Part shown: positions 7,225-61,093 of the stretch, in pieces
Position numbering within the stretch: the stretch's first letter is position 1
Layout: every line of letters begins with the position of its first letter
Assembly: GCA_964016885.1 (NCBI GenBank)
Contig: OZ024742.1
Span: 356,624,001 to 356,688,000, forward strand
Source: Eledone cirrhosa
Lineage: Eukaryota
DNA length: 64,000 nt
Reading direction: 5' to 3'
Translations under genes and position numbers: made by a program
Notes under the pieces: generated by a model
What the model was told of the DNA's origin: nothing
Databases searched by the model: none
The model's input: the letters and a program-made list of their open reading frames with translations, nothing else

Positions 7225-7243
7225 CATAAATACATACATATTA

Positions 7244-7520
7244 TCATCATCATCTTTTAACATCTGTCTTCCAGGCTAGCATGGGTTTAGAAGGGAATTA
7301 TCCCACTTGAGGCAAGTTTGGTCGTCTCGCTCGTATAGGACTATCTGGCATGTTTTCTACAGCTGTATGCCCTTCCTAACACCAACCACATTTACAGTGT
7401 GGACTGAGAGGTTTTGACCGTGTTACCTACACGGCCTCATTACAGCGTGGACTGTGATTTTTTGGGGTCGTAACACCTACACGACCTCATTTATTTAGGA
7501 CTGGATGTTGTGGTACGGCT
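7244..7520 (-). mobile_element. RTE LINE 3' UTR/tail fragment with (CAT)n
   Basis: Reverse complement of 58780-59050. Confidence 0.85.
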
Positions 7521-7649
7521 CTGTAAAACACTTGATAATTTGCATTGAGCCTTTTGTCATACTGGTAACCGGCTAGTACTCAGTACTACTCTACATATTT
7601 ATAGTTATATCAAACATATATAAATATAAATATAACTATATATATATGT

Positions 7650-8257: not shown

Positions 8258-8326
<69 letters not shown>

Positions 8327-8329
<3 letters not shown>

Positions 8330-10155
8330 GATGAATATAAAATGAAAGTGCTTTTGTTAAAAAAGGAATTTATTAGGTATTGACATATGTTTCTGTAACA
8401 GACCGAATACCTATGTATCGCTGCTTGCGTAATCATATAATGTTAGCAAGTATTCGATAGCAAATGTATAATCAGTTGTCACTTCTTCAGAGATTTTGGA
8501 TAAACTGGATAAAATCAGAAAAATTGAAGTATTTATATTAGTAAAAGAGGAAGGAACAGAGGGGATAGAATATGACAGATGGTAAAATAATTTACTGCTA
8601 AACAAGTATATAATGGGTTTTTAATGAGAATACCATGAGTAAATCTAAATAAGAATTTTGGGAGTGCCAATTTTTATCTCTACTTGACCAACTGGACAGT
8701 GGACAGGGCTGGTCATTTGGTGCAGTAGTATTAATTATAAAGTGTCAATTGGGGAAGGGGGAGATTTCGATTGCTACTAAATAACATCAATGCTAGTAGT
8801 CAGCTGGTATTTGCACTAGGGAATTGAATCAAGAAATCAGAAATCTCATTTTATCTATAACAGTTTGTATTAAAAGGTAAATAATAGAAGAGTTGATAGA
8901 ATTAAGACTAATAAAGAATGTTCATATCTATTTTGACAATCAAACGGGGATAGAGACAGGCGTTCAATCCTGGTAGTATTTATAATATGAAAATGTAGAT
9001 TTTAAGCGATGGTTACAGTATAACGATCGCTCTATTCTGTTATTTAATAAAATGTTTTTGGATTTCATAATACAAAATAATTCTACATTACATAATTTAC
9101 AAAATTCCTGTCCATTGGATATGGGGGGGCAGTCACTATTATATCCCATTTTAGGTGAAATTGTTGGTTATTTTCACGCAGCTGCCAAGCCTTGTCTGCG
9201 AGTGTTGTTACATAACGCTGGTTTTCATGTTTTATCGAATAACGATGTCTATAAAGGCGTGATTTGAAGGAGGTGGCTGTAGATCCCACATAGTACCACT
9301 TCTGTCTATCCGATTCGATAGTACATTTGTATACGATGTTGCGTTCAAGACACTGATTGTTCAACGGACACACATCCATGTTATATACGTTTGATGTTTT
9401 GTCTGGTTAGAGCAGACAAAACATCAAACGTATATACCATGGATGTGGACACTTACAATAACTTCATCCGTAAGGAATTGCATAAAAAATACAGGAAAAC
9501 TAATGAAGCCACACTTAAAAACATCAACAACTCGGCATGTGATATTGTTAAAAAACTTTGTATTGACGATAGAACGCAACCCTTAACACCAGCTATTTAG
9601 TAGCAATCGAAATCTCCCCCTTCCCCAATTGACACTTTATAATTAATACTACTGCACCAAATGACCAGCCCTGTCCACTGTCCAGTTGGTCAAGTAGAGA
9701 TAAAAATTGGCACTCCCAAAATTCTTATTTAGATTTACTCATGGTATTCTCATTAAAAACCCATTATATACTTGTTTAGCAGTAAATTATTTTACCATCT
9801 GTCATATTCTATCCCCTCTGTTCCTTCCTCTTTTACTAATATAAATACTTCAATTTTTCTGATTTTATCCAGTTTATCCAAAATCTCTGAAGAAGTGACA
9901 ACTGATTATACATTTGCTATCGAATACTTGCTAACATTATATGATTACGCAAGCAGCGATACATAGGTATTCGGTCTGTTACAGAAACATATGTCAATAC
10001 CTAATAAATTCCTTTTTTAACAAAAGCACTTTCATTTTATATTCATCCTTTCTACATTTCTCCGGAATATAATTTATACTCGTTGAGCAAACCTGCACGT
10101 ACGCTGTTCATCTCTAACGTAACGATATATTATCACTACATTATTGATAACCTGA

Positions 10156-13229: not shown

Positions 13230-13308
<79 letters not shown>

Positions 13309-13526
13309 TAAAATAACAGATTAAAGTTTAAGCAAAGAATCGCTGCTTTCACCCTTAACGGGATCTTCTGAAACTAACAAAGTCAATCTGTAAACGCAGA
13401 ACTGGATATTTCAAAAAACGTTGCAACCGGAGGAAGACAGGAAGACGATACTTTGGTTCGTGGAAACGTTCGCTGGCAAAGAACGGGAAAAAACGAATAA
13501 TACGTCATTAATAGGAGCGGTGAAAA

Positions 13527-13581
13527 TAAAGTACCAGTAATGTACTGGGTAATTGCTGGCCTTGTGCCTAAAGTAGAAACA
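13527..13581 (+). mobile_element. 5'-truncated Meta-domain SINE insertion with a 20-bp TSD
   Basis: attaataggagcggtgaaaa at 13507-13526 and 13582-13601; empty site in the other arm near 17695-17715. Confidence 0.88.
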
Positions 13582-14792
13582 ATTAATAGGAGCGGTGAAA
13601 AACAATTACGTGCAAAGACAGAACCACGTTTATGGTATAAAAGAGGTCGTAGACTAATGTTCTCTTAGGTGGTGCATAGAGACGTTCTCTGGCAATGAAC
13701 GAAAAAACGAAGATAATAAGTCATATGTGGAGCGTGGAGAACAATAGCGCGCAAGGACAAAACCACGTAAATGGTATAGCAGAAGTCGTAGACTAAAATA
13801 CTAACTAGGAGACCAAATGAATCTCCGCTACAGAGTTAAGAACAAAGTAAATAAATACAATACAGAAGTAATAGAAACAAATAAATACATACACGCAAAC
13901 AGATACGTACATACACAAGCATCCGCAAAACCTTACCATAGGTATACGAAACCACGCACATATAAATATGTGTGTGTGTGTATGCTTGTGTACAAATAAA
14001 TAAATAATTATATAAACGTATATAAGTAAATAAATACGTATATAACAAGCGCACGCACATACCTACAAATAAATACACGAATGTTCGGAGACGTAAGTCA
14101 ACTAAAACAAGAAGTACACATATACACACACCCACCATACGTACGAACCTGCATACTCACGCAGACGCAAAACTCCCGTATACACATAGTCAAACCCTAA
14201 ATACCAGAATATGTAAAAATTATACGCCATAACAGTCAAATATACGTACGAGAAGGTATACATACCTTCACAAAACATACGGGTAATATATACATACCTA
14301 TGCAAATAAGTAAAGGAATAAATAAAACATATACTTAGCTCCCGCATCAAGATGTAAAATATCCACGTATAGATCGTGCTATCCGTTGGGGTATATCGTG
14401 GGGCTGTAATACAGGAAAGTTTTGTGCAATTTATGTTTACAAGCCGAAATTGCCTCGGATTTTTAGTTTAAGATGTGGTCTGTGGCGTAGAGTATTTCCA
14501 GGGCCTCAGCGGCGCAGAGGTCACATGGTCTTTTATTTCCGTAATACAATCTAGCCCTAGCTAGGATCTCCCAGTGTAACTTATATTGTGGTTGGTTGTC
14601 TTTTAGACTCCAGATATAAGCTGAAAGTGACGTCATATTCCTTCTTAGAGGGTAACGAAAAGAATGGGTATGCATGTACAGACGCTGCTTGAAACTATTG
14701 GCGGTTAACCCTATGTAGGCCCTACGGGACGTGGGTGTTACAACCTTACATTTGTAGACAATGTTACTAGAGAGGCATTTCCCGGACTTAGC

Positions 14793-16917
14793 AGAAACAA
14801 CATCTGAATATTTCTACAAAGAACATACCCGTACCAAGCAGGAAAACATACCTAAAACTCCTGATACAGAAAACAGACGCGTTCGTTAAAAGATTGCGTT
14901 GGCGTGCCTTTTATTTCGAAAATCCGCGAAAAGCAGACAACAAACAAGATAAATTTGGATTTAAAACCTATAATAACCCTCCGTGGAACCCAGCATTGCT
15001 ACCCTTCGAAAATGATGTCTTGGAACTCATTCGGAGTATCAAATTTCGGAATAGGAGCAATTCCTTCCAGCAAGACCTGAAGAATAGAATTCGTTCTATT
15101 AAGGATTCTAACGCCGTGCACGTCCATTCCGACAAAACTGGCAACCTATATCAAGTGGAGCGCAGTACTTACCATCAACTACTACATAATGCTGTAACTA
15201 AGGATTACCGTAAAACTAATCGGTGTGCCATCAATGAAATCAACGATGCTGGGTTTAAAATCACATCAGATCTCAACATCATGGACCGGACCGAACCTCT
15301 GGACCCTATCTCTCCCCACTTTACCCTGAAGGATCACAAATCCAATTTTCCGAACAACCCCTCTATTCGGCTTATTAACCCTACGAAGTCCGATTTAGGT
15401 AGACTTAGCAAAACGATTCTTGATAGAATTATACCTGAATTTAGAAGTTTGGCCCCTCTCGCACTGTGGGACAATTCCTTCGCGGTGATTGATTGGTTCT
15501 ACAGCATATGTAACAAGGAACATTGCCGTTTTATCCAATTCGACATCAACAATTACTACTCCTCCATCACTTTACCACTTCTCCTTAGAGCTATCAATTT
15601 CGCTAAAACACTCAGTGGTTAAGGATTTCGAAGTTGATGCCATCCTTAATGCCCGAAAGTCGGTGATTAATTTCGACGACTCTATTTGGATTAAAAAATC
15701 CAATAGCACCCCATTCGACGTGAGTATGGGCGCCAGTGACTCTGCGGAGGTTACTGATCTTATTGGCCTTTTCCTTCTTTTCTCTATCAAGGACGAATTC
15801 CCCAACGCGGACGGTGGTTTGTACCGTGACGATGGTCTTTTGACCATGACTAAGTGCGGATCTCGTGCTTGCGACAGGTTCAGAAAAGAACTCACAGCCT
15901 TCTTTAAAGGCTTCAACCTCTGTATACAGGTTGAGGCCAATCTCTCAGTCGTTAATTATCTCGACGTTACCCTCAATTTATTGAATGGGTTGTATTACCC
16001 GTATAGAAAGCCGAATGATACGCTTAATTACATAAGTAAATATTCCAACCATCCTGCCAGCATAACCAAGAACCTGGTAAAAAAACGTTTCGTTGAGGCT
16101 TTCCCGTCTTTCCAGCAACGAGCGCATTTTCAACGACCATTCCACTTATTACAATGAAGCTCTTGCTCGAAGTGGATTTGTCGATAAAGTAGCTTATACA
16201 GAGTACGAAAATAGACCTAGAAGAAATAGATCCCGTCGCATTTGTTGGTTTAACCCACCATATAATATGGAGGTGGCCACACCATTATCTAAGATCTTTC
16301 TTTCCCTTATTACGAAGCATTTTCCCCCTACACATAAATATAGTAAAATTTTTAATAGAAATACTATTAAAATTTCTTACTCTACGACTCCTAACCTTTC
16401 ACATAACATCACAGCTTCAAATTTAGCTAAACTACCTAGTCGTAGGAACACGTGCAACCCTGTAGTTAGTACAAACTGTAATTGTAGGAATCGGGCTGAT
16501 TGCCCCCTATCCGGGAAATGTCTCTCTAGTAACATTGTCTACAAATGTAAGGTTGTAACACCTACGTCCCGTAGGGCCTACATAGGGTTAACCGCCAATA
16601 GTTTCAAGCAGCGTCTGTACATGCATACCCATTCTTTTCGTTACCCTCTAAGAAGGAATATGACGTCACTTTCAGCTTATATCTGGAGTCTAAAAGACAA
16701 CCACACCCAATATAAGTTACAGTGGGAGATCCTAGTTAGGGCTAGATCGTATTACGGAAATAAAAGACCATGTGACCCCTGCGCCGCTGAGGCCCTGGAA
16801 ATACTCTACGCCACAGACCACATCTTAAACAAAAAATCCGAGGCAATTTCGGCTTGTAAACATAAATTGCACAAAACTTTCCTGTATTACAGCCCCACGA
16901 TATACCTCAACGGATAG
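14793..16917 (+). pseudogene. PLE polyprotein (RT + Cys-rich linker + GIY-YIG endonuclease) with two frameshifts (near 15616 and in an A-run near 16080)
   Basis: STKNIPVPS, SDKTGNLY, TLKDHK..RLINPTKS, FIQFDI..YYSSI, MGA, GLYRDDG, NYLDV, WFNPPY, CNC..CP..C, YIGLT..FKQR. Confidence 0.92.
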
Positions 16918-17835
16918 CACGATCTATACGTGGATATTTTACATCTTGATGCGGGAGCTAAGTATATGTTTTGTTTATTTCTTTACTTATTTGCATAGGT
17001 AAGTATATATTACCCGTATGTTTTGTGAAGGTATGTATACCTTCTCGTACGTATATTTGACTGTTATGGCGTATAATTTTTACATATTCTGGTATTTAGG
17101 GTTTGGCTATGTGTATACGGGAGTTTTGCGTCTGCGTGAGTATGCAGGTTCGTACGTATGGTGGGTGTGTGTATATGTGTACTTCTTGTTTTAGTTGACT
17201 TACGTCTCCGAACATTCGTGTATTTATTTGTAGGTATGTGCGTGCGCTTGTTATATACGTATTTATTTACTTATATACGTTTATATAATTATTTATTTAT
17301 TTGTACACAAGCATACACACACACACATATTTATATGTGCGTGGTTTCGTATACCTATGGTAAGGTTTTGCGGATGCTTGTGTATGTACGTATCTGTTTG
17401 CGTGTATGTATTTATTTGTTTCTATTACCTCAGTATTGTATATATGTACTTTGTTCTTAACTCTGTAGCGGAGATTCATTTGGTCTCCTAGTTAGTATTT
17501 TAGTCTACGACTTCTGCTATACCATTTACGTGGTTTTGTCTTTGCGTTCTATTGTTCTCCACGCTCCACATATAACTTATTATCTTCGTTTTTTCGTTCA
17601 TTGCCAGAGAACGTCTCTATGCACCACCTAAGAGAACATTAGTCTACGACCTCTTTTATACCATAAACGTGGTTTTGTCTTTGCGCGTAATTGTTTTTCA
17701 CCGCTCCTATTAATGACGTATTCGTTTTTTTCCCGTTCTTTGCCAGCGAACGTTTTCACGAACCAAAGTATCGTCTTCCTGTCTTCCTCCGGTTGCAACG
17801 TTTTTTGAAATATCCAGTTCTGCGTTTACAGATTG

Positions 17836-17886
17836 AGTTTCAGAAGATCCCGTTAAGGGTGAAAGCAGCGATTCTTTGCTTAAACT
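17836..17886 (+). ncRNA. Hammerhead-like motif with U4A core (CAGAAGA), family K
   Basis: AGUUU-CAGAAGA-u ccc guuaa ggg u-GAA-AGCA gcgauucuu UGCU-U-AAACU; copies at 3095-3145 (+) and 13325-13375 (-). Confidence 0.6.
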
Positions 17887-18439
17887 TTAATCTGTTATTT
17901 TAATAAATATTTGCTCTACGGTTTTTATATATTTGATATATATTTTCCTTATCGAGCCCTCTTTGGATTTTAGTCTTCAATTTTATTATTATTACTATAT
18001 ATATATATATATACATACATACCCTAAACGGACGGCAGTCCGTTTAGTAATATTGTTGTGGTCGTGTTTTCGTTGGCAATCGTCTGTTTACGACAGTACA
18101 GCGCGGCTTTGCTTTATTTAACTGAGATAAAACTTATATGAGCATGAACAGTAGATCATTACGCATCTTTTGGCTTAAAAATCTAGAAATTTGGTCCAGC
18201 GGGAAAAAGTTTATAATCAAAGTTTGCTGATAAATCTTGTGTTCAACCGAGTGAGTAGTAAGCGTGACGCTAGGGGAGGTAATCCAGAAATGACGTAGCT
18301 TTGTCATTAAGCCAGTTGCCTCAACTAGATTGCAATTATACTCAAAAGAACTTTAAAATGTCAATCACTTGTCAGTATTTCACTATGATCATTTAATTAT
18401 TAGATAGTTGTTGCTTGCATTGCCTTAAAAATTAGTAGA

Positions 18440-20921: not shown

Positions 20922-21129
20922 CACACACATACACATATATATACACACACTTACATACACACTACACACACATACATACACACATATATACACGCATACA
21001 TACACACACACCTACATACGCACACACAATTAATTATAAGAAAAAATAAAAAACAATGAACAAACATATAATGTAATAGGCCGTCACATAAAAATAAAAA
21101 ATATACGACTTAAGAAAATAAATCGTACG

Positions 21130-21564
21130 AGAATAAATCCAGGATGCAGTTGCAGAAAGCCGGATGAATGCCCATTACAGGGCAAATGTAATACCAAATC
21201 CGTTGTATATGAGGCCAAAGTGACACCTTTGATTAACAGGAGTGAACGATATGTTGGCATGACTCATGACAGATTCAAAACCAGGTTTTATGCACCTGTC
21301 GCTTCTTTTAAACACTCTGATAAAAGAACAGCAACGGCTTTCGCAAATAAGGTGTGGGAATTCAAAGATAAAAACATCCAGTACTCTATCGATTGGTCTA
21401 TTTTAGACCATTCGAGGGAATACCAAAGGGCCACAAAGAATTGTTCTTTGTGTACCACTGAAAAATTTAGAATTCTACAAAACTTGAAAGCCACTTCAAC
21501 TTGGCTGAACTCCAAGTCTGAGAACGTCAGATGTTGTCCTCACCTGAAATCACATCTGCTCTGA
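21130..21564 (+). pseudogene. Naiad-type PLE GIY-YIG C-terminal fragment
   Basis: CSCRKPDECPLQGKC..VVYEAKV..YVGMT..FKTRF..CSLCTTEK..LNSKSE..CPH. Confidence 0.88.
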
Positions 21565-26134: not shown

Positions 26135-26190
26135 ACTGCTATATATATTTCGATGATAGCCATTGAAAGGCTATGACCTCATCAGGCAGT
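26135..26190 (-). ncRNA. Type I hammerhead ribozyme, family A
   Basis: ACUGC-CUGAUGA-ggucauagcc uuucaau ggcuaucauc-GAAA-UAUAU-AUA-GCAGU; stem II covaries with the 6681 copy. Confidence 0.87.
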
Positions 26191-35571: not shown

Positions 35572-36059
35572 ATATAAATATATGTGTGTGTTAGTGTGTG
35601 TGTGTCAATATACTTGGTTATTTAAATGATTGAAATATCACATTTATCAAATCTAATTAGTACAAGAGCAATTAATTCAGTATAATAATTACCTAAATTA
35701 AAGACCTCTTCTTACTACTGACAGTTGTTACTGGTATAGTATTCTTGTAAGTTTTTACTTTAATTGTTGTTTAGAAGATAATTTGTTGAGAGAGTTATAA
35801 ATCTTAGTGTTATTTTGGAAGAAAAGATCAGTAAATTGAGTTAAATTGTGTTTTAATAAATAAGACATTAATTTGGCAAAGAAAGAAATTTTTCTTACTG
35901 AAATTTCAACTTGAAAATTAATCATTCTTCCTTTTTTTTTTTTTTTCTAAGAACGATTAATAGACTTATAATCAATACAAAAAAGTTAGGAATAATAAAT
36001 CAATCAGATATACAGTTATACACACCATACGTAGTGTGTAGTGTATGTCTGTGTCGGAT

Positions 36060-36090
<31 letters not shown>

Positions 36091-37637
36091 CATGTATATT
36101 GTGTATGACTGTATGTGGTTCTATATGTATACATACATACAGTCATACACTATATATAGTGTGTATGTGGTTCTATATGTATACATACATACATATACAC
36201 TGTGTATAGTGTGTATGTATGTATTCATATATATGTATACATGCATATAGAAATTATCTTTGTCATTTGAGTTTCTATTGATGTCTAATTGTATTTTGAC
36301 ACAACCTCAGTTTAGAGATGGGAATTAATCTCCTGGGATAACGGTGTTGATCGCAATTGTAAACATTCAAACACAATCTGTTGGGAATACATAGGATAGT
36401 AATTTGTTCCCCATAGCAGCAGTCTACAGAGTGTGTGAAGATGCCTAACTAAATGGATGGATGAATTCTAGACAAGACAATGCTAAAGAGATATATTACA
36501 TTGGTTTACTTCAATTGGTATTCTGAGTTTAATCCAGAAGAGGGCTATCAAAGTGATCAGAAAGCCATCATTCTCTGACAACCTCTAAACTGCTGAACTT
36601 GTTGTGTATCAGTCACACATTACCTAACACTACAACAGGTTTCAAGTCATCTAACCTAGTAAATCTACTTTTATTCTAAACCAATATACTTCCCTTCCTC
36701 TCTCTCTTTGTATCTGGATATGTTTGATATACGGGTTTGAGGTTAGAGTGATTGGCTCATCATTGGGAAGATGTGAGTTCAATTCCCAGTAGAGCCTTAT
36801 GTCTTTTGAGCAAGTTACTATACAGGATGTTTTAAAAAAATTTATATTATTTGAGATATAAATATCCCAGAAACTACAAAGTCTAAGTCAACAAGACTGA
36901 GCAAACTTAATGTTCAGCAACCTAAGATTTATTCCTCAAAATGTATCAATATTATATAACTTTGCCTTTCATCCTTACGGGGTCGATAAAATAAAGTACG
37001 AGGTAATGCACTGGGTAATTGCTGGCCTTGTGCCAAAAGTAGAAACAATATATCACTAATTCACAATATATATTGGTAGTTTCTGCGATTTTTACATATC
37101 AAATGATATCTAATTTTTTGAAACACCTTATATTTTACACCTGTCTTGTTACAGACTCTGTCATGCTGAATATTGCTATGTACTCTGATCAGAGAACACA
37201 TGTCTATGGAATGCTGGGACACTTTCGCAACAACTGGAATACCCATCTGATAACAATAAATAACAACAGTATCTCCAACAGTGTCCTGCTGGATTCAGTG
37301 ACAACAACAACAACAATCTGGTTTTTGCCAATGAGCAACCCTTTGAGTGGACATTTGAACTCCTGAAATAGCAGCTAAATATTTGTAAAAGAAATCACAT
37401 GCTACAATTTACAAAACAAAAAAACAAAAATTGAATGATGTGATCCTTGTTTGAGGACTCTGCCCCCATTACCCTCTCAGGAATAAGTAGGAGAAGAAAA
37501 AGATGATGAAGAAAAAGTAATGTGCTCCTACATTCAGTGTCTGAAAATATGGGATCGTCTCTTATATGTAAAGACTACTTGAAAACCGATCAAATATCTA
37601 ATATATCTGATTTTTATCATTCATTCCTTTTCTACAG

Positions 37638-37698
37638 ATATTTTCATGACAAACAAAATTTCTTCTATCCCTTCCAAATTGAAAGATCACATCTCTAA
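37638..37698 (+). CDS. Putative terminal coding exon of the same host gene
   Basis: ttccttttctacag acceptor; phase 2 entry gives (K)YFHDKQNFFYPFQIERSHL*. Confidence 0.6.
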
Positions 37699-38360
37699 TA
37701 CTATTGATATATAGTTAGAATGTCTCAAGAACGAATCACTGGACAGATTTTAAGGGCAAAACCAATCACCAGGAGACCCAGAGGTAACCTCGAGTGATAT
37801 GGTTGGATGACAGCTACGAACTTGGCAGATCTCATTTGAGGAACCAGCCAGATCACTTGGAGACAGTTGCTTCTGACAGGGCCCGCTGGGTGGAGTGTTT
37901 GAGGACTCTGCCCTCAGGAAACCTCAGAGGAAGAAAAAGAAGATTCATTGTCTTATTAGTTTAACTGTTACCTCTTTGATAACAACTGAAGCAAAGTATG
38001 AATACATAAATTGCTAAAGGATATTTACACTTTATATGAAGGTCAAAAGAAATGTGGATTCTATTTTATGAACATGGATCCCCAAAGACTAATAACTTCC
38101 AGAATAATATATATAAGTATAAAGAAAGTACTCAAGTACCGAATTGCGATAAAGATAGCTTATAAAATAGAGTGAAGACTTTAAAATATGTGAGAAAAAA
38201 TTGCCAATATCCACTATGGGGAATCTACCTGGTATCTGGAAGATATGGGGTTTCAATTATTCATAGCAGCCAGTGGCAACTTCTTTTTTCATTTCTTAAG
38301 GGAGGGTCTTCCCCCTATTTTATAAGCTATCTTTATAGCATTTTTGTACTTGAGCACTTT

Positions 38361-38393
<33 letters not shown>

Positions 38394-38396
<3 letters not shown>

Positions 38397-39482
38397 TTGG
38401 GTGCGGATGCATTCATGTATATGTGTGTGTCCGCATGTATCTGTGTGTTTCTAAATATATTGTTAATAACTCCCTCTGGTCGAGCAACCTTTGAAGTGTG
38501 GGGACTGCTGAAAAGCTTCCATTACTCATACTTCTCGCCCCCTTCACCACCTCTTCTACGGCTTCGATATAAATACCCCCTCCGCCTCCGTGGTATTTTC
38601 TTCGGGGTTATAAGAGGCTTAGCTCTGTTTCTCGACCGTTATATCGCGTGACTATCTCCCCCTCCGCCTTTTGGGATTCTTTCTCACGTCGTGTAGAGGC
38701 GTTCTTGAGACTAGTAAAATGAGGTATCCTCTTGATAAGTCGGCAGACCTCGCAAGGACTCTATATCTTTATGATGTATTGTTTTTGTTTATGCCACGAA
38801 ACTACGTAGTCGAGGAATCTAGGAGCAGTTTAGGTATGATACATTTTATTACTAATTATATCTAAATGTTTCTTCTCTCTTCATAATGTATTTTTAACTC
38901 TGATACTGGTTCAGTCTAGTTCAACCGGATTGGTCTGTCCCAGTCATTCATTGAGCAACATCGGTGAAGTTGGCACCCTTAACTCACGGTTGGGTGCGGA
39001 TGCATTCATGTATATGTGTGTGTCCGCATGTATCTGTGTGTTTCTAAATATATTGTTAATAACTCCCTCTGGTCGAGCAACCTTTGAAGTGTGGGGACTG
39101 CTGAAAAGCTTCCATTACTCATACTTCTGGTCCCCTTCACCACCTCTTCTACGACTTCGATATAAATACCCCCTCCGCCTCCGTGGTATTTTCTTCGGGG
39201 TTATAAGAGGCTTAGCTCTGTTTCTCGACCGTTATATCGCGTAACTATCTCCCCCTCCGCCTTTTGGGATTCTTTCTCACGTCGTGTAGACGCGTTCTTG
39301 AGACTAGTAAAATGAGGTATCCTCTTGATAAGTCGGCAGACCTCGCAAGGACTCTATATCTTTATGATGTATTGTTTTTGTTTATGCCACGAAACTACGC
39401 AGTCGAGGAATCTAGGAGCAGTTTAGGTATGATACATTTTATTACTAATTATATCTAAATGTTTCTTCTCTCTTCATAATGT
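38394..39482 (+). mobile_element. Retrozyme-like tandem element, family G (593-bp unit, about 1.8 copies) with U3-A8 HHRs at 38727-38816 and 39320-39409
   Basis: Direct repeat with exact 593-bp period; UCCUC-UUGAUAA..GAAAC uacgua GUC-GAGGA; TA-flanked. Confidence 0.9.
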
Positions 39483-39552
39483 ATATATATATATATAACC
39501 CATGCTAGCGTGGAAGATGGACGTTAAACGATGATGATGATGATGATGACAT

Positions 39553-39748
39553 ATATAGAAAAGCTTCTACAGGACTAGAACTGTTTCATTCATGAGAAAT
39601 CATCAGGAAGCGCATGAGCTTCCTGATGATTTCTCATGAATGAAACAGTTCTAGTCCTGTAGAAGCTTTTCTATAATATGTATACTCTACTTTGTATTGA
39701 GTACCTTACTTAGTGTAGATACCTCCGATTGAACTGGGGATAAACTTA
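39553..39748 (+). mobile_element. Fold-back element, family E, with HHR at 39617-39667 (mirror 39562-39611)
   Basis: AGCUUC-CUGAUGA..GAAAC..GUA-GAAGCU; homologous to 3372-3563; truncated copy near 48163-48210. Confidence 0.88.
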
Positions 39749-39769
39749 TATATATATATATAAATATAT

Positions 39770-42710
39770 ACGAAAAAATGAAACGAAATTCCATTTCTCA
39801 CTCTTAGTACGGCTGTTACTTAAATATAAGTATGTATACGTACATACATATATGTATACAGACGTTCAGTAGTATCTATATTTATATACATATATGCACA
39901 CATATATATATGTACGTATGGATTCACCGAACATTAATTATAATGCTCGGTGTGTTTGTAAACAAACACCCCGAATTAAGCCGTACAGTGTCTAGCAACC
40001 CTCGTTGCTCATTTGTTCAACACTGACAAAGGAACGCTGTACTAGTTTCAAGCTTATTAGCTATCGTCAGCAACGTATACCTTCCTGCCAGATGGTTGAA
40101 CGTCTGAAAGTATATACTTTCCTTATGCATATTAACGGGTGAGCAGCTTAATTTGCATATCGAGTGAGTTAATAGGCCGGGGTACCAAAAACGATAAACG
40201 AAAAAAATGAAACGAAATTTCATTTCTCACTCTTAGTACGGCTGTTACTTAAATATAAGTATGTATACGTACATACATATATGTATACAGCCGTACAGTA
40301 GTATGTATATATATATATACATACATGCACGCATATATATATATGTACGTATGGATACTTATATACAAATATATATATTTAATTTTAATAAATATTTGCT
40401 CTACGGTTCTTATATATCTGATATATATTTATCCTTATCGAGCCCTTTTTTGATTTTAGTCTTCAAATTTATTATTATTACTATATATATATATATATTC
40501 TCTGTGCTCCAGAAGCCAAAAATTCGGTTTCATATATTGTTTCCAGAATAATATCTAATAACTGTAGTAAAGCATATCATACTATTACAAAATTACCCTT
40601 TCCTTATATTATAAGATATATATAATGAAAGAGAGACATATATTTGACTTGACTTTTTTCTTAACTATGCAATTGCTATCTTATTTGGATCAATAGGAGC
40701 CCATCATCTATTTTAACCTGATATGCAATAGGCAGTTTTATCAAGCTTGGTTCATTTTACTTTCTATAACCTTAGAATAGATATCAATATTCTAGTTTTA
40801 ATTATTACTCTGTAATATGAGATTCATATTCTGCCTTCATGCAGTACACACACGCTCACTCACTCACTATATCTCCCCCTCTTTCTCTCTCATGCATACG
40901 TACATAAATACATACATACGTGAAATTACATATGCATTTATATTCATATATATAAATATATTAGTATGTATACGTACATAGATATATGTGTACAGACATA
41001 CAGTAGTATGTATATATATATATACATACATACACACACATAAATATATGTACGTATGGTTTTACCGAACATTCGGTTTGTTTGTAAACAAACAGCCCGA
41101 ATTACGCCGTACTGTGCTCGGCAACCATCGTCGCCCTTTTGTTCAACACTGACACAGGAACGATGTACTAGTTTCAAGCTTATTAGCTATCGTCAGCATC
41201 GTATACCTTTCTGCCAGATGATTCAACGTTTGAAAGTATATACTTTCCTTATGCATATTAACGGCTGAGCAGCCTAATTTGTATATCGAGTGAGTTAGTC
41301 GGCCGGGCAAACCAAAAACGATAAATGGAAAAGAATGAAACGAAATTTCATTTCTCACTCTTAGTACGGCTGATACCTAATATAAGTATGTATACGTACA
41401 TACATATATGTGTACAGACGCACTGTAGTATGTATATATATATACATACATGCACACACATATATATATACGTATGGGTTTACCGAACATTTATTATAAT
41501 GTTCGGTTTGTTTGTAAACAAACGTTCAACCATCTGACAGAAAGGTATATGATGCTGACGATAGCTAATAAGCTTGAAACTAGTACATCGTTCCTGTGTC
41601 AGTGTTGAACAAAAGGGCAACGATGGTATATTTGCACACCGCCACTTAATGATAATTACGAATTACCAATCATGGAGCAACTGATATGATAACCTGTTTT
41701 GTTTATTGCTCTGATTAAAATGCTCATGTACATATCATTTAGAGGGGAGTTCGTTTCCCTAGCTTGGCTGGTAGACATCTCTTCTATTTGTTGTTAGGTG
41801 TAGGTAAACAATTAAGCAAAAATACCATACCTCGAGATTATATGTACATGAGTTATCATATCACTTGCTCCATGATTGGTAATTCGTAATTATCATTAAA
41901 TGGCGGTGTTCAAATATCCCGTGACCGTATGGTGCAATATCACTGTTTCGCCACAGTGAAACGTGTCTGCTCGCATCAACACACAAAGTTGAAAAAAGAG
42001 TGTATTCAGCTACTGACGTCAGAACGTGACGTCAAAATTAAGGGCAGTTATTCGACCCCCTCCAAAGTCAAAGCTAGGTGGCGTGATCTTCTTTATATTT
42101 AGGTATCAGCCGTACTAAGAGTGAGAAATGAAATTTCGTTTCATTCTTTTCCATTTATCGTTTTTGGTTTGCCCGGCCCACTAACTCACTCGATATGCAA
42201 ATTAGGCTGCTCAGCCGTTAATATGCATAAGGAAAGTATATACTTTCAAATGTTCACTCATCTGACAGAAAGGTATACGATGCTGACGATAGTTAATAAG
42301 CTTGAAACTAGTACATCGTTCCTGTGTCAGTGTTGAACAAAAGGGCGACGATGGTTGCCGAGCACTGTACGGCGTAATTCGGGCTGTTTGTTTACAAACA
42401 AATCGAACATTATAATAAATGTTCGGTAAACCCATACGTACATATATATGTGTGTGCATGTATGTATATATATACATACTACAGTGCGTTTGTACACATA
42501 TATGTATGTACGTATACATACTTATATTTAGGTATCAGCCGTACTAAGAGTGAGAAATGAAATTTCGTTTCATTCTTTACCATTATCGTTTTCGGTGCGC
42601 CCGGCCGACTAACTCACTCGATATGCAAATTAGGCTGCTCACCCGTTAATATGCATAAGGAAAGTATATACTTTCAAACGTTCAATCATCTGACAGAAAG
42701 GTATACGATG
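39770..42710. mobile_element. Array of retrozyme-like family H (~428-bp unit) in both orientations, interrupted by other repeats
   Basis: HHRs at 40035-40075 (-), 41161-41201 (-), 41550-41590 (+) and 42278-42318 (+): CGAUG-CUGACGA-u agcu aaua agcu u-GAAAC UA GUA-CAUCG. Confidence 0.88.
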
Positions 42711-43034
42711 CGTGTGTGTGTGTGTATATGGGTGTTATGTGTGTGTGGGTGGGGGGTATGTTAAGATGGAGAGAATATATATATTTTGTGTGTGTGTATA
42801 TGTGTGTATGAAAGTGATTCTATTAGTAGAAATGGGGGAGGGAATTGTGTGGGGGGGGTATGTGTGTGTGTATGGGGGTTATATGTGAGTGGGAGCATGG
42901 TTAGCATGTTAAGATGAAGAGAATATATATTGTGTGTGCGTGTAGGAAAATGATTCCGTTAGTAGGAATATTTTTGAATGAACATATTTTCCTTACTTAT
43001 TCGTATTTATTCTGTTGTATTGTTAGCGCAAACG

Positions 43035-49117: not shown

Positions 49118-49477
49118 TATTCATATATATATATATATATATATATATTCATATTCATATATATATATATATTCATATTCATATATATATATATTCATAT
49201 TTATAAATATATATATTCATATTCATATATATATATATATATATATTCATATTCATATATATATATATATATATATACATATTCATATATATATATATAT
49301 ATATTCATATTCATATATATATATATACATATTCATATATATATATATACATATTCATATATATATATATATATATTCATATTCATATATATATATATAT
49401 ATATACATATTCATATATATATATATATATATTCATATTCATATATATATATATTCATATATATATATATTATAATT

Positions 49478-52400
49478 GGGGAGGGTCATATTTGTGTAAT
49501 ATTGCCAGAATTAATAACAGAACACACTCACTGTCTGGTTGATTTCCGCTTTTCTCTTCTGTGTCTTTTATATCGGTTAATTTAATTTATTCAGTCCTCG
49601 ATGTTGCCATTGACTGACCAACGGTCAAAAATACAGATACAATATAGACACAAACACATATATATAGTCTATCAAAGTTCTTTCGTTGCACATTTGCAAC
49701 ATCGTCAGTGGTGCTATTGTTTCCTCCCGTTGCATTGTATGTCTACGCCATCTTTATTTAGTTTGTTTATATGTTTATTTATTTGTTTATTTTTTTGTCT
49801 TCTTTGCGCATGCGTTTGCGTGTGTGTATAGTGTTTTGTTTGATGTGTGTTCGTGTTTGTGTGATTGTGTATTGGTTAATGTATTCTATCTTTACTAATG
49901 TGGGTTTATATGTGTTTGTTGTTATTGTGCTTGTGTATGTATTTATTTATATATATATTTATTTATTTATTTATACTTCTCTTAGGTCAGTGTTGTTTGT
50001 TTGGGTGTTGCTGTTATTCCATTCATTTTTTCTGTTTAGCCTTGGCCTTCTAAGTTCTATTTATCTGGCCTCTCGGATTTGCCTATCTGCTGGGTTATTT
50101 CTATGTTTAGATATTATTCTAATTTCTGTGTTGTCTATGTTACCGCCGTGTTGTTGTCTGGCATGTTCGTATAGTACTGAACCGTTTTTTCGTCCTTTTA
50201 GTTCCCCTCAGTGTTGGTCTATCCTTTCACCTATGATACGAGCTGTCTCACCTATGTATGTTGTTGTCATGTTTCTGCAAGTACCCTCTGTACATCTTAT
50301 GCTATAGACTACGTTTCTAGTTTTACAGTTTATCCGGGGGTTTACTTTACATATGATACATTTCCTATTAGTACAGTGGGTTTTCTTAAAAGGGAAGGTT
50401 TTGCTGATCAGCGATTTTATGGTGGTCCCTGGCATTTCCTCCACCTTAATATTTAAGTGGATCTTTCTCGGGGCCTTTCTACACTGGTTTGCTAATTTCC
50501 CTCCAGGGGTAGCGTCCACAAACATGACACTATGGTGTCTCTGGTTGTCGTACCATGAGGTGGCCTTCCCTATCTTATGTCTAGCCCTATCTAAGCTATT
50601 CCATGATTTGCTCCTGTATAATGGGCAAATTCCTTTCATATCCAGTTCTATGAGGGTCTTATACTTCTCTGTGGCTCCTTCGTATACTCTGATTCTGTCT
50701 CTTTGGTTGTAGCCAGAGAACTGCATGCGGTTGGTGAAGTGTTGGATGCGTCTTTCCATTTCTGTACCAAGTCTGCGATCAGAATATTAAACTTAGCACT
50801 ACTGGACATTGCTGAGTTTTTGAGTATCAGGTATTTGGAGGCCATGGGTTTAGCATAGTGTGAGTGGAGAATGTGGGCTCTCTCGTCTATAGTGTTAATC
50901 CAGAGTTCCGTGTCTAATACAGGTAGTCTATTGTTAGGGTGTTTGGAAGGGTAGTGGATAGTTACAGTTATACTCTGGTGTATGGAATTAGCTATCTGCT
51001 GGATGCTTTCCATTGTGCTACGTTCTAAATCAAACTTGTTAGTGCTCTCTTGTGGGGATGTTCTTATTACTATATTGATATCGTTTACGTAACGAGAGTA
51101 CAATGATGTGGTCTATGGAGCCCTCATCAAGGAGATCTTTAAGTCTCCTTTCCCACCATGCCATAAAAAGGTTGGCAACGTCACCAGCTATGCTGACGCC
51201 AATGGCTGCTCCCTCATTTTGGGTGTAGATCTTCTCGTTGAACTTGAATATGTGGTCCTTTAGGGTAGTTTTGATACTAGCCCCTATTGCATGTGCGACC
51301 ATTTTTCTTACCTGATCCTTGTTTTGGGGGGTCCGTATAGCTTTGGTCCACCCAATTCACCTTCCCATGGGGGTCTTTTTAGACTTAAGTTTATGGTGGG
51401 TGGTCTACCACTTATGGGTCTACTGGGCCAGAAACGTCTATGGCCATGGCTGTCTAGGTAGTCAGTGTCGTAAGTAAGTCTAAGTAGGAGGCCCAGTTCG
51501 TCTGTGTCGACGTCGCAGAACTCCACCTCACTCTCAATGATCATCTCCACACATTTTTCCACAGCAAAATCAATGTTAATGGATAGGTACAGTGACACCA
51601 AATCCATGCTGAATATTATGCAGTTGGATAGGTTCCTGTTTTTGTTGCACTCACTGATTCTGCTGAGGAGGTCCTCTGTACTATCACATACATCTGGGGA
51701 CATCTTGATTATGGGGCGTATAACCATTGAGAGGAAGTAGGAGATCCTGGAGTTGCTAGCTATATTTGCTCCGCATACGGGTCTTGTTGGTGGTCCTGTT
51801 GTCGGGTCGTCGACTGTCTTGTAGTCTTTGCGGAGCCCATACAAGGGTGGTATGCCATTGTTAGACGCCTGGAACTTGTTGGCAGTGCGTCTGCTTGGCT
51901 TTAGGATGTCGGTCCACATCATCATGTGAGCGTTGAGGATTTTCTCTCTCCCATCATGTATTTGCTGTGCAATTTCGCTCGTGTTGGTGATGTGGGGTTG
52001 CATAGCCTTGATGTAGTTCGGCATGCTATCTATTGACATCCTACCAGACTTAACCGTGGGTAGACATAGTACCTCACCATCCCGTGTGCGCTGCTTGAGG
52101 CTAACCAAGCCTTCTACAGGTTTCCTGCCAAGTTGTTGGGCCTCTGGTCTGCTCTGTCTCTTAGTATACCTGTCTACTACTTGTCTAATCTTATTTCTAT
52201 CTATGGTGAAATGTGCCTCTGTCTTGTCATCTATTTGTTGTGGTATGCAAACTACTTTTATTAAAGGGTAACCTCGTAGGATATATATTAACCATCTTAT
52301 ATGTTTTGTGAGCTGGGTTGAAGAATAGTTTCTCTAAGGGGTTATCATTATATCTATCGTCATAGTTGTGTGTGTTGCTATTATTGTTATTATGGTGGTT

Positions 52401-53150
52401 GTTGTTGTTCCTATCATTAGCATTATAATTATTGTTATGATTGCTAGATGTATTGTTGTTTACTTCACCGTTATTGTTGTTGTTACTGTTATTTCTACCA
52501 TTGTGGTTGTTACTTTTATTATGTTTCTTGTTTTTGTTGTGTCTATCATTGATGTTGCTACATGTATTACTTCCATTATTACCACTGTGGTTATGTTGTT
52601 GTTGTTCGTATTGTTACCGTTAATACTACTGTGGTCGCTCCTGCTGTGTCTGTGGTTAAGTTTCTATTATTATTATTATTATTGTGGTTGTTGTTATTCT
52701 GTCTATCGTTAGTATTATTACCATTATTACTATTTCTCACTTTCCTGCTATTGTTATTGTTATGGCTGTTATTTCTATACTCAGAGTTATTGTTTATATT
52801 ACTACTACCGTTATTATTGTTGTTGTTGGCTGAATAAAAATGGCGTAGACATACAATAGAACAGGAGGAAACGATAACACCACTGACGATGTTGCAGATG
52901 TGCAACGAAAGATTTATGATAAACTATATATATGTGTTAGTGTCTATATTGTATCTGTATTATTTTTGACCGTCGGTCAGTCGATGGCAACATTGAGGAC
53001 CGAGTAAGTTAGATTACCGATATAAAAGACACAGAAGCGAGAAGCGAAAACCAACCAAACAGTGAGTGTGTTCTGTTATTAATTCTGGCAATATTACACA
53101 AATATGACCCTCCCCAAGTATAACAATATTTGTTTCGACACACGATTTCA
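49478..53150 (-). mobile_element. Non-Naiad Penelope-like element with an inverted terminal repeat; HHRs at 49672-49711 (-) and 52880-52919 (+)
   Basis: 49478-49761 is inverted at 52830-53118; a further terminal fragment at 44680-44880. Confidence 0.88.
49972..52270 (-). pseudogene. PLE polyprotein (RT + GIY-YIG), multiply disrupted
   Basis: SMDLVSLY, GAAIG..ANLFM, RYVND, LPVLD, HYAKPM, VVYSIRC..YIGETAR..ER..QH, RQIREA..LNRKNEW. Confidence 0.88.
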
Positions 53151-55210: not shown

Positions 55211-55565
55211 TATATAAAGAAAAAGGGATGAAATCGAAAATGCAACTGAAGTCTTATTTTTTTTTAAATATATATATTTATTTGGTTCCTTTACCGGTTT
55301 CGCAGTTCTTCTGCTTTTCAAAAGGTGAGTTGAGATGGAGGGTCTGTGGTTTTTCTGTGAGAAAAACCACAGACCCTCCATCTCAACTCACCTTTTGAAA
55401 AGCAGAAGAACTGCGAAACCGGTAAAGGAACCAAATAAATATATATATTTTTTAAAAAATAAGACTTCAGTTGCATTTTCGATTTCATCCCTTTTTCTTT
55501 ATACTTCCACTCGTGTAGGACACCTCGGTTATTTTTCATTTTGTAAAAAAAACCTCACTTTCTAA
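55211..55565. mobile_element. Fold-back element, family F, with U3-A8 HHR at 55391-55428 (mirror 55288-55325)
   Basis: CCUU-UUGAAAA-GCAG aagaa CUGC-GAA ACCGGU A-AAGG. Confidence 0.87.
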
Positions 55566-55691: not shown

Positions 55692-58600
55692 AACGAGGTT
55701 TAGAAATGCTTGAACGTAAGGAGGTTGATGTTTGCTGTATCCAAGAGACCAGGTGGAGGGGCGGGTCTGCTGGATTCATTGTGGGTAAAAAACGATGCTA
55801 TAAGCTTTTCTGGGTGGGAAATATCAATGGGCTGGGTGGGGTATGAATCATGTTAGCAGAAAAATGGGTGGATATGATAATAGACGTAAAGAGAGTGAAT
55901 GACAGAATAATTAAAATATGACTTGTTCTAAATAGAAATACTGTGACAGTAATATATGCGTACGCACTCCAATCCGGACTGCCTGGCACTATAAAAGACA
56001 GATTCTATGAGACACTTTTGCTCACTACCTCCCAAATAACCGACACTGACTATATAATTATTGCTGGAGACCTAAATGGTCACGTTGGACAACATTGTGA
56101 CGGCTACGACGGAATCTATAGAGGCTATGGGTTTGGTACTAGAAATTAGGAAGGCTCCAGAATCCTGCAATTCTGTGACGCAAATAACCTAAGTATCTGT
56201 AACACTAACTTTAAAAAACGAGACAATCACTTGATCACCTACAGATCAGGGGAATATACCAGCCAGGTAGATTATATCCTTAACAGAAGACGTGACAGAG
56301 TGTCTGTTGTAAACACTAAATCCCTCCCCCACGAAGAATGCACCTCCCAACATATACTCATAATTAGCGACCTCAGAGTCAGGACAAGACGTACTCGACA
56401 ACAGAAGAGGATTATCCTCAGGAGAAAAATATGGAAGCTAAAGGACCCCACAGCCAATAATAAATTTAAAAGCATATTACCTGATGCTTTCGACAGTAAG
56501 GAAGAGCAATTAGAGTCGTACAATATAGAGGAACAGTGGGAATTCCTGAAAGCAAACCTGCTGATGGCGGCAGATGAAGTCTGTGGCTGGACCAGGCCTA
56601 TAGGCAGGAGCAGAGTAACGTCGTGGTGGAACAGTAAGGTGGAGGAGTCAATTAAGGCCAAAAAGCAGGCTTCGAAAGTATGGCGGGATGGGGGAAGTAG
56701 AGAAGACTATCAAGTGGCCAGGAGGGAAGCTAGGAGACAAGTGTACTTCGCAAGAAGAGAAGCAGAGGAAAGAAAGTTCAAGCATGTTCTACAACGCGAG
56801 GACCAAAAACATGAAGTGTTCAGGATTGCTAGGCAATGTGTCAAGGAAAATCGTGATATTGTCGGGGAGAAGTGTGTCCTTAATGATGATGGTGTACTTG
56901 ACATCACTGACGCTGATAAGAAGGTAGCTTGGAAGTGTCACTATGAAAGGCTACTAAATGAGGAGAATAAATGGGAGAAAGACAGTCTCCCCCACATCGA
57001 TCCAATAGAGGGACCAGCAGTGTTAGTAGAAGGTAGTATAATAAGTAAGGCAATCAAAGATATGAAGACGGGTAAGGCGGCTGGGCCTTCGGAAATAGTT
57101 GCTGAAATTCTGAAAGCATCTGGAACGGTGGGAAACACTATGGTCACACGGATAGTAAACCAAGTCATACAGAATGGAGTCATTCCGAAGGACAGGCGTA
57201 GCAGCATCATCTTTAACTGCTACAAGGGTAAAGGAGATGCCCTAGATAGGGGTAACTATAGAGGCATTAAATTAATCGACCAGGTCATGAAGGTCACAGA
57301 AAAAGTAATAGCGCAACTAATCAGTGAGCGAATTGATCTAGATGAAATGCAGTTCGGGTTTGTGTCAGGTAAAAGTACCACAGACGTTCTTTTCATTGTA
57401 CGAACACTACAGGACAAGTACCTAGCTAAAATTAGACCCCTATACTTAGCTTTTGTTGACCTGGAGAAAGCCTTTGACAGAGTCCCCCGCTCCATTATCT
57501 GGTGGGCTCTTAGAAAACTAGGTGTTGATGAATGGCTTGTGAGAGCTATACAAGCCATGTATAAAGAAACAGTCAGCAAGGTTAGAATTAACAACGAATA
57601 TAGGGAAGAGTTTAGCGTAAAAGTTGGTGTTCATCAGGGCTCTGTTCTTAGCCCCCTACTATTTATTATTGCCCTTCAAGACCGGCTGCCCATGGGAACT
57701 CCTATACGCAGATGATCTAACACTCATAGCTGAATCAATAGCTGAATTAGAGAAGAAATTCCAAACATGGAAGCATGGCCTAGAATCAAAAGGCCTTAAA
57801 ATTAACCTGTCTAAGACTAAAGTTCTAGTTTGTAGGAAGGAAAATAGGGCACCGGTCCCATCCGGGAAATGACCATGCACAGTGTGTAGGAAAGGAGTAG
57901 GCAGAAACTCCATTTTATGTCCCAAATGCAAAGTATGGGTGCATAAAAGATGTAGTGGGATCACAGGTAAGCTAACTAAGAACAGATTTTATATGTGGCC
58001 GGTGCTCTGGTGCAATAAGTAGTAGCAAGTGCCCACAGAATACTAGCTCATTCCATTGCACAGATGGTTCTATAGAAATAGTGGACACCTTCCGTTACTT
58101 GGGTGACAAAATCAGCAGTGGGGGAGGGTGCTCTGAAAGTACAGTAGCTAGAGTCAGAACTGGATGGAAAAAGTTCAGAGAGCTTATACCACTATTAGCC
58201 GCTAAAGGGTTCTCTCTAAAAATGAAAGGCAGGCTGTATGATGCCTGCATACGAAGAGCAATGTTACATGGCAGTGAGACCTGGGCATTGTATGAAGAGG
58301 ATATACGCAGACTGGAGAGGAACGAAGCTTGCATGCTCCGCTGGATGTGTAATAGTAATATACGTGAACGACAAAGTATAAACGAACTAAGGGAAAAGTT
58401 GGAAATAAGAGGGATCAGATGTTGTTTACTCGAGAGAAGACTACGTTGGTATGGTCACGTGATGCGCATGAAAGAAGACAGCTGTATAAAAATGTGCAGG
58501 GCAATAAAAATAGACGGTAGCCACGGAGTAGGCAGACCCAGAAAAACCTGGGACGACTTGATAAATTCCGACCTCATACACTTACAGCTCTCCAAGACAA

Positions 58601-59050
58601 TGTCACTGGACCGAGACCTTTGGCGGTACTCAGTAATAGAGAAGACCCGCCTTACCTAAATACAAAGTCAAACCTACTACAGTCGGTAGGCATCTCTAAC
58701 AAAATACACCCTGTCCCACCACCCCCACCCCATCCACACCGCCCCGTCCAATGTAAAGCTATGTTGGTGCCACAACATCCAGTCCGAAACAAATGAGGTC
58801 GTGTAGGTGTCACGTCAAAAAAACACACAGTCCACTCTGTAATGTGGCCGTGTAGGTAACACGGTAAAAACCTCCCAGCCCCACACTGTAAATGTGGTTG
58901 GTGTTAGGAAGGGCATCCAGCTGTAGAAAACCCGCCAGACAGTCCTATTCGAGCAAGACAATCACTCTTGCCTCAAGTGGGAAAACTCCCGTCCAAACCC
59001 ACTCAAGCGTGTAACACGGACGTTAAACGATGATGATGATGATGATGATG
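55692..59050 (+). mobile_element. Near-full-length RTE LINE (APE endonuclease, RT, Cys-rich insert, 3' UTR, (GAT)n tail), disrupted
   Basis: CCIQETRW, AGDLNGHVG, QVDYIL, NYRGIKL, FVDLEKAFD, GVHQGSVLSP, LYADD, RYLG; several stops and frameshifts. Confidence 0.95.
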
Positions 59051-59445: not shown

Positions 59446-60030
59446 AATTATCGTGTCTATAGTCTGACTTTCATAGGTCATAGATTCCATACACTGTTGG
59501 TTTTTTCCCTGTATTATTGATAACGCACTATATATCTCTCTCTGGTGTGTTACCTTCTCAACATATTATATTTTAAAGGGCTCAGGATCTCTTCTCCTTT
59601 GAGCACATTATTTATAGGGAATAACGACGGCCTATGCCTCCGTTAATTTATCGTGATATTTCGCTCCTAATAACAGTCTTTCCTATCTGTTTGGTTGAGC
59701 ACACTTATCTGAGTAGATTTGGGCTGCCCTTTCTAGCAGTTCGTCTCTCAGAGGCCACTGGTTCACTGCCCCTAAATGCGCTGTGACTTCTCTCTCCCAC
59801 GTGTAGCTGGACAATCAATTGTAAAATTCTCTTAGTATTGTCTGAAATGTATGGCCTTACACACGCTGATGAACCGAGACTAGACCATTTCTTTCAACAC
59901 ATTTTTTGGTGAAACATATCTTTGGATTTGTACGTGTGTTATATAGTTATAAAGGTATTTATTTACGCTTTAATTTATATTTTTAATTATCGTGTCTATA
60001 GTCTGCCTTTCATAGGTTATAGATTCCATA
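59446..60030 (+). mobile_element. Retrozyme-like family B: one full 539-nt unit plus 45-nt terminal redundancy; HHR at 59859-59939
   Basis: aattatcgtgtctatagtctg at 59446 and 59985; ACACACG-CUGAUGA-acc..ggu-GAAAC auauc uuug gauuu GUA-CGUGUGU. Confidence 0.88.
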
Positions 60031-60672: not shown

Positions 60673-61093
60673 TCATATATATATTCATATATATATATAT
60701 ATTCATATATATATATATTCATATATATATATATATATAAGCCAAAGGGATATTCAATTTGTTGGTAATTCAACAAATATAAATGCTTATAACTGATTCA
60801 AAGCACTCTACAAGTTTTCTGGAGTATAATATTCAATGATAACCCATGCTAGCGTGGAAAGTGGACGTTAAATGAGGATGATGATGATGCTGATGATTAA
60901 ATAAATGGAAACTATATTTATAAAACCATATTTATTCTATTATATATATTTCAAGTGTACCAAAACTTTGCTACGCTCTCATCAGATAAAATACAAAGTT
61001 TGTTATATAAATATTGACATAACCAGAAAAAAAACCTTAACGGTCCAAGTTCTTCTGGATAGTCATATATATATATATATATATATTCACATA

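Follow-up and report, generated by a model that had tools for sequence, protein, structure and literature searches.

A 593-nt protein-free tandem repeat with a U3-A8 hammerhead motif and Penelope-like insertion ends in Eledone cirrhosa

The stretch of 64,000 nt that was analysed as a whole (hereafter, the window) includes a short tandem repeat that lies between TA tracts and carries a variant hammerhead motif in each of its copies. How does a sequence of this kind, which encodes no protein, come to be copied and inserted? The explanation that we favour, and hold to be probable to a modest degree, is that the 593-nt repeat is a non-autonomous passenger of Penelope-like elements (PLEs), that is, a non-LTR retrozyme, whose self-cut monomers would circularise and be copied by a PLE RT-EN from two sites.

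The repeat in the window and its hammerhead motif

The insert begins at 38395 and ends somewhere between 39481 and 39484, where the boundary is ambiguous. In agreement with the initial annotation, which described about 1.8 near-identical copies of a 593-nt unit between TA tracts, we found 1.84 head-to-tail units: a first copy of 593 nt (38395–38987, + strand), whose 5′ end is unit position 1, followed by 497 nt of the next one (38988–39484, + strand; unit positions 1–497), with 6 differences over the 497 shared nt. The (TA)n target tracts, to which no strand is assigned, occupy 38364–38394 on the left and 39482–39497 on the right. No meaningful ORF was found inside the element, where the longest frame is 134 aa from stop to stop and 78 aa from Met; a 161-aa frame that overlaps its 5′ part had no Pfam match. 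The unit is thus devoid of RT or EN coding, as had been noted.

Both copies contain a type I hammerhead motif on the + strand, at 38727–38816 (U3 at 38732, A8 at 38737, predicted cut after 38811) and at 39320–39409 (U3 at 39325, A8 at 39330, predicted cut after 39404), which confirms the U3-A8 hammerhead previously proposed for each copy and places the predicted cuts 593 nt apart. The parts present in the two copies are stem I (UCCUC/GAGGA), the core UUGAUAA, a stem II region of 59 nt, GAAAC, a 3-bp stem III and GUC. Stem III had been described as palindromic in every copy; the palindrome, ACUACGUAGU, is present in copy 1 only, and a C at 39400 breaks it in copy 2 (UACGCA). The predicted hammerhead fold lies ~1 kcal/mol above the local minimum (−25.7 vs. 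−26.8 and −26.5). U3-A8 cores are known from a PLE family of Schistosoma (PMC4209133), and natural U3-A8 hammerhead variants have been reported to be active (PMC3088659), so this core has already been published and is no novelty in itself.

A relaxed hammerhead scan gave 7 matches in the window, against 0–1 in each of 20 random 64-kb sequences generated with a dinucleotide model. Among these matches are others of type I hammerhead-like form that have the canonical C3-G8 core, located at 6681–6735, 26135–26190 (− strand), 59859–59939 and 60933–60993 (− strand). Immediately to the right of the repeat, a small head-to-head element (39553–39743), with a relative at 3379–3562, displays by eye a CTGATGA...GAAAC hammerhead-like motif. 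The Rfam search of positions 36000–42000 (E ≤ 1) returned no hammerhead and TA-repeat miRNA noise alone; the warning that searches requiring CUGANGA would miss the motif is therefore true for one tool, Rfam.

In the hammerhead alignment, nearly all the changes in stem II preserved pairing (99% of cells paired), yet they were one-sided. No two-sided changes were detected in the hammerhead helices using an alignment of 19 rows (one of them with a single wrong base), and 318 of 500 shuffles scored as high. The 240 nt located 3′ of the cut contain conserved hairpins, with two-sided changes in 4 of 57 pairs. The cut-to-cut monomer of 593 nt (38812–39404, + strand), a possible circle whose existence as RNA is predicted only, has a predicted fold of −176.6 kcal/mol (z = −6.15).

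Genomic copies and their insertion ends

A hammerhead pattern in which position 3 could be C or U and position 8 could be G or A was found at least 6,208 times in the genome (3.0 Gb, 1,796 contigs), and its reversed control gave no match. Among the first 100 matches listed, 99 have a U3-A8 core and 1 has U3-G8; C3 versions number 9 genome-wide, all of them with A8. Relatives with a canonical core gave 0 matches to the pattern CTGANGA combined with the same stem III (spacer 8–38). Since no C3-G8 form was found, the U3-A8 covariation is not demonstrable inside the family. The family is dispersed and multicopy, and ranges from dimers to multimers, with arrays of 8 units and more; single arms comprise up to 2,932 nt of pure unit, and up to 5 units in the sample of 148 loci described below. 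The dominant unit lengths are 591, 593 and 595 nt. A sister family, ~75–80% identical over the unit (79–80% in one comparison), keeps both of the fixed ends defined below as well as 46 of the 47 nt of the hammerhead blocks. The conservation of these blocks, compared with the overall identity, suggests that selection acted on the motif as the family spread, although cleavage would not necessarily be the target of this selection.

A TATA-like box, TATAAATA, is present at 38568–38575 (+ strand), where the initial annotation had reported one (near 38568), and also at 39161–39168. Its presence was verified, but not its conservation across subfamilies, since the sequence is TATGAAT at 157 of the 158 sites counted in arrays of the 591-nt type and CATAAATA at 16 of the 17 counted in the sister family, which makes an essential promoter role unlikely. 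A suspected pile-up of 5′ ends 25–30 nt past the box vanished with more loci (12/230 vs. 8.1 expected).

The ends of the insertions were examined in 148 loci chosen solely for the hammerhead, corresponding to 53 stretches from the first 100 matches listed (contig C1) and to 95 loci from two subfamily patterns, a set that left out the loci already sampled. These yielded 230 arms in 147 loci, with a duplicated insertion in two loci counted twice. In L075 and L290, one and the same insertion is found at two places separated by a few kb, through either a later duplication of the DNA or the assembly. We observed that 216 of the 230 arms terminate at two sites: 101 at site A (unit 58–76) and 115 at site B (unit 486–503), while the 14 other ends correspond mostly to small internal pieces. 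Both ends run into (TA)n, and each is found shortly 3′ of a conserved hairpin on the + strand, which for B is located at 39415–39468 (also at 38822–38875) and for A is the long, G-U-rich hairpin at 38981–39042. Site B lies 80 nt and site A ~242 nt 3′ of the predicted cut, which gives an offset of ~163 nt. The copy in the window is a lone B-ended arm of 1,090 nt, in which site A (39045–39063, + strand) is internal. Other TATAT-like sites inside the unit are not used as ends, indicating that TA microhomology does not suffice to determine the ends.

Arms are also found joined in inverted orientation. From the 73 inverted junctions observed, 62 were A+B, none was A+A or B+B, and 11 included a small internal piece. 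Hence, in 62 of 62 complete inverted pairs one arm ends at A and the other at B, whereas random pairing would give about half A+B.

In contrast to the 3′ ends, the 5′ ends of the 230 arms are variable. They are not enriched at the predicted cut (8/230 vs. 8.1 expected; within 2 nt, 3/230 vs. 1.9, not significant), and are enriched at unit 586–8 (21/230 vs. 6.2 expected; 10/89 vs. 2.4 for long arms), an interval that was picked after seeing the data. This hot spot coincides with the base of the hairpin preceding site A. The copies with permuted ends that the initial annotation expected were thus not observed as such, given that the 3′ ends occupy two fixed sites and just the 5′ ends vary. By the same token, identical ends in all copies, which had been put forward as an argument against the proposal, occur by half: the 3′ ends are fixed and the 5′ ends are not.

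Insertions of EN+ PLEs are described as partial tandems with an inverted, 5′-truncated copy and a tail of 30–40 bp at one end only (PMC8557442, PMC3846280). In the case of one PLE studied in vitro, both strands of AT-rich DNA are cut and extended by the protein, and the genomic tail is delimited by two internal positions of the RNA at which RT begins (PMC11167929). The geometry of PLE insertions is present in the 593-nt family, which shows fixed 3′ ends, a tail, 5′ truncation and an inverted copy. By analogy with these elements, we interpret its two-ended footprint as the PLE ‘tail’ footprint; A and B would be two RT start sites, 163 nt apart, and the inverted insertions would originate from priming on both nicked strands.

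Candidate partners, templates and alternative explanations

The window harbours a near-complete, frameshifted copy of an autonomous PLE (13305–17996; coding pieces at 14792–16917, + strand), which we take to be Hydra-like. It has an inverted copy of 1,205 nt, and its two 3′ ends, separated by ~90 nt, lie in (TA)n. A broken copy of a second element, PLE family C, is located on the − strand at 49476–53150 and displays by eye a minimal hammerhead-like motif near 49710–49670. The 3′ ends of family C follow the same two-end pattern in (TA)n, with an offset of ~55–60 nt. The designation Neptune-like was assigned to family C from its C-terminal GIY-YIG-type region and CX4CXXC linker, compared by eye with the description in PMC8557442; in sequence searches against Pfam and PDB, the PLE proteins were not recognised. 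A first look at its abundance gave 14,160 candidates, of which 118 were scored. In the 9 copies examined, all 9 had open frames of 1,002–1,099 aa, with long Asn-rich inserts, and ended in (TA)n. From its sequence, family C appears to be a co-existing, potentially active PLE with the same (TA)n target.

Other repeated or coding pieces were observed in the window: a PLE endonuclease-like fragment (21040–21564); repeats spaced by ~420–430 nt, in tandem and inverted pieces (39773–42711); a segment (40382–40498) that matches the PLE 3′ tail at 17897–18012; a perfect 464-nt inverted repeat with 810 nt between its arms (8320–10057); a short inverted TA-flanked family (6802–7163 and 55217–55564) that is common in the examined loci; and LINE-like EN/RT frames at 56150–58659, presumably RTE-like. 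Elsewhere, L092 contains an end fragment of PLE C, inverted and present in four tandem copies at a spacing of ~270–300 nt (6493–7563).

The unit shows no sequence similarity to the PLEs of the window, and its best match to PLE C was 12 nt long (E 0.32). In none of the 148 loci (0/148; first-set flanks of ~3–4 kb, second-set flanks of 1.5 kb) was the unit a terminal repeat of an RT-EN ORF, which agrees with the earlier view that it is not a plain pLTR always attached to a PLE ORF. Nevertheless, some arms among all the loci examined are joined to PLE fragments without a TA linker. The arms of L017, L150 and L298 are joined directly to family C, that of L235 to another PLE type, and that of L080 to a small non-coding family; the latter piece (L080:4520–4656) is a fragment of the short inverted TA-flanked family. 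The piece in L017 is an internal coding segment of family C without its own 3′ end; it shares 98–99% identity with a young C subfamily whose open frames span 1,000–1,100 aa. The junctions in L311 and L315 are ambiguous as chimeras, and the apparent chimeras in L262, L275, L286, L319, L232, L228 and L255 were explained by a TA linker or a nested insertion. Given that family C accounts for 3.75% of the flanking DNA in the second set (family A, 2.5%), three clean C junctions are suggestive only. Neptune-like family C may be the best candidate for the partner, which is not established in view of the lack of similarity of the unit to PLE C and of the junctions with other families (L235, L080).

Regarding the template, we compared the units within and between loci. 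Divergence within versus between loci was 0.2 vs. 1.3% for the 591 subfamily, 0.7 vs. 1.8% for 595, and 1.1 vs. 2.6% for 593; in other words, units of one array are 2–6 times more alike than units of different arrays. Array-wide variants were found in 29 of 29 long 591-type arrays, and private ones in 10 of them. At least one unit is contained in 101 of the 230 arms, and the arrays pass seamlessly through the predicted cut site, with exact junctions in 470 of 485 cases (a count sensitive to substitutions only). The homogeneity and the array-wide and private variants suggest that each array passed through a bottleneck of one unit, which was then copied repeatedly, as would happen if RT ran round a circle. 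Accordingly, of the earlier idea that the more-than-unit-length insert reflects RT reading round a circle, the repeated copying is favoured, while length alone is no proof of a circle. A test of tail versus monomer, which asked whether the segment past the final cut is distinct from the laps before it, gave a weak signal of 22/46 (p = 0.03), driven by 4 of 49 arms, and the control leaned the same way (27/65); a previous tally was discarded because it was inflated by gap-placement artefacts. One contig of 621 nt (depth 7.8), from one of four runs of unrecorded kind, spans the whole unit, and either a tandem or a circle could give it. Taken together, we consider a circular template for RT slightly more probable than a linear one.

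According to the explanation that we favour, tandem copies would be transcribed and then self-cut by the hammerhead into 593-nt monomers, which would likely circularise. A Penelope RT-endonuclease would nick the DNA of a (TA)n tract and begin synthesis at two fixed positions within the unit; priming would occur from both nicked strands, at A on one and at B on the other, and the arms would be joined by microhomology. The RT would run round the monomer several times.

The same passenger and the same start sites could be combined with a different template, namely an uncleaved linear multimer that starts near unit 590–5 and forms no circle, the hammerhead fold being a protein-binding or late-processing element. 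We regard this alternative as possible, albeit rather unlikely. The 586–8 hot spot, inside which the copy in the window also starts, could be a transcription start and would then point to uncleaved linear templates, as would the behaviour in vitro of the PAc PLE, for which unprocessed RNA is the main substrate, hammerhead mutants have no effect on insertion, and the hammerhead needs protein to cut (PMC11167929). For Xenopus, in vitro cleavage failed in 8 of 9 retrozyme dimers (10.64898/2026.07.22.740005). The single-lap variants that both arms of one insertion share in L003, L125 and L141 would also be expected from a heterogeneous multimer template. However, the hot spot is spread over ~16–20 nt and not confined to one base, the variants that are polymorphic within an array recur in at most 2 loci, and copying from a linear template cannot by itself make arrays longer or carry a private variant into every lap, as is found in 10 of the 29 arrays. 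It is also conceivable that short PLE-type insertions later grew and were homogenised at the DNA level, through slippage, unequal exchange or gene conversion, in which case the homogeneity of the arrays would be uninformative on the RNA template. The two-unit periodic pattern of the variants in L121 fits this idea, and local tandem amplification of PLE termini has been proposed (10.64898/2026.07.22.740005), but A or B ends and A+B inversions are kept even in arrays of 5–8 units, the arrays are dispersed and short, and the homogeneity extends across inverted arms; we therefore judge DNA-level growth to be improbable.

The least credible alternative, in our opinion, is that an autonomous PLE has so far escaped detection, that the unit is only its pseudo-LTR, and that the copies are truncation debris. 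In its favour, the insertions end in the way PLE insertions do, PLE coding fragments are attached to a few arms, and the copies inspected were the best-scoring or the first among the matches listed. Against it, the 5′ side of the arms in the 148 hammerhead-selected loci consists of TA, an inverted arm or varied unrelated DNA, and never of a constant ORF; moreover, the junctions with PLE fragments differ in breakpoint and in family, and arms reach up to 5 units in this sample.

Within the passenger explanation that we favour, we tentatively propose a more specific version, to which we give less than even credence: a dimeric Neptune-like PLE enzyme could capture the ribozyme-made RNA circle and copy both nicked strands of the TA tract at once, always from A on one and from B on the other, these two sites being separated by 163 nt and each located immediately downstream of a conserved hairpin. 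If this were true, the inverted PLE footprint would represent an obligatory asymmetric twin initiation and not a fold-back, and the genome would hold a minimal protein-free substrate together with intact candidate enzymes for the in vitro mobilisation of a retrozyme.

Comparison with known systems

Animal non-LTR retrozymes have been described together with their circular RNAs and with PLEs as candidate mobilisers (Cervera and de la Pena 2020, PMC7229834). The 593-nt family resembles them in being a protein-free tandem with a type I hammerhead per unit, a GC content below 50%, thousands of copies and a strongly folded monomer, and in that PLEs are proposed as mobilisers. It differs in its unit of 593 nt, as compared with the RNAs of 170–400 nt tested there, in the U3-A8 core and in its long stem II. 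For those retrozymes, expression, cleavage and circles were demonstrated, while for the 593-nt unit they are proposed; conversely, the two fixed ends and inverted arms are a feature of the 593-nt family that is not described in the part of PMC7229834 consulted. The family has every retrozyme feature that can be tested on DNA, and it works like a miniature protein-free PLE unit. The same conclusion is reached in a recent preprint, which argues that animal retrozymes are non-autonomous PLE derivatives of 51–972 bp, a range that includes the 593-nt unit (Li, Clavereau, Pollet 2026, bioRxiv 10.64898/2026.07.22.740005). The link to PLEs was drawn there from co-occurrence and pLTR similarity, and the searches used canonical and minimal type I models; for the 593-nt family, the link comes from the insertion geometry and the chimeric junctions, and no pLTR similarity was found among the PLEs of the window and PLE C.

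The EN+ PLEs Neptune, Poseidon (PAc) and Naiad (PMC8557442, PMC11167929, PMC3846280) share with the family the partial tandems, 5′ truncation, inverted 5′ copy, tail at one end, AT-rich or (TA)n targets and ends located 3′ of the hammerhead. In contrast, the 593-nt unit has no ORF, and its ends are offset by ~163 nt vs. the 30–40 bp described for those elements. To those descriptions, the 593-nt family adds a counted rule of one A and one B arm per pair. The core covariation and the PLE context are the same as in the hammerheads of the Schistosoma Cercyon PLE (PMC4209133) and in the natural U3-A8 motifs (PMC3088659). Those motifs are minimal, heterogeneous and mostly single (~1,300 matches), unlike the ones of the 593-nt family, which are nearly uniform, combine a stem III of 3 bp with a long stem II, and occur in tandem non-coding units. 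Chlamys PLEs such as MRC1 (PMC8557442) are likewise non-autonomous and form multicopy head-to-tail insertions, but their 3′ end generally resembles an autonomous family and, as far as that source describes them, they mostly lack canonical hammerheads; for the 593-nt unit, no 3′ resemblance to an autonomous PLE was found among the PLEs of the window and PLE C. Plant LTR retrozymes carry type III hammerheads in LTRs, PBS/PPT and a 4-bp target duplication. The type I topology and the head-to-tail units set the 593-nt family apart from them; target duplications are unreadable in (TA)n.

Among the papers listed by our literature search, none describes a cephalopod retrozyme; the family may figure in the supplements to PMC7229834, PMC8557442 and the preprint of 2026. 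The ingredients, i.e. retrozymes, U3-A8 cores and PLE tails, are already published, so what is gained is sharper evidence and not a new system. Whereas the movement of animal retrozymes is still hypothetical and based on co-occurrence and pLTR similarity, the 593-nt family provides countable genomic evidence for insertion by a PLE mechanism, in the form of two internal starts, strict A+B pairing and PLE chimeras, and its small RNA, together with the candidate enzymes, would allow circular and linear templates to be compared.
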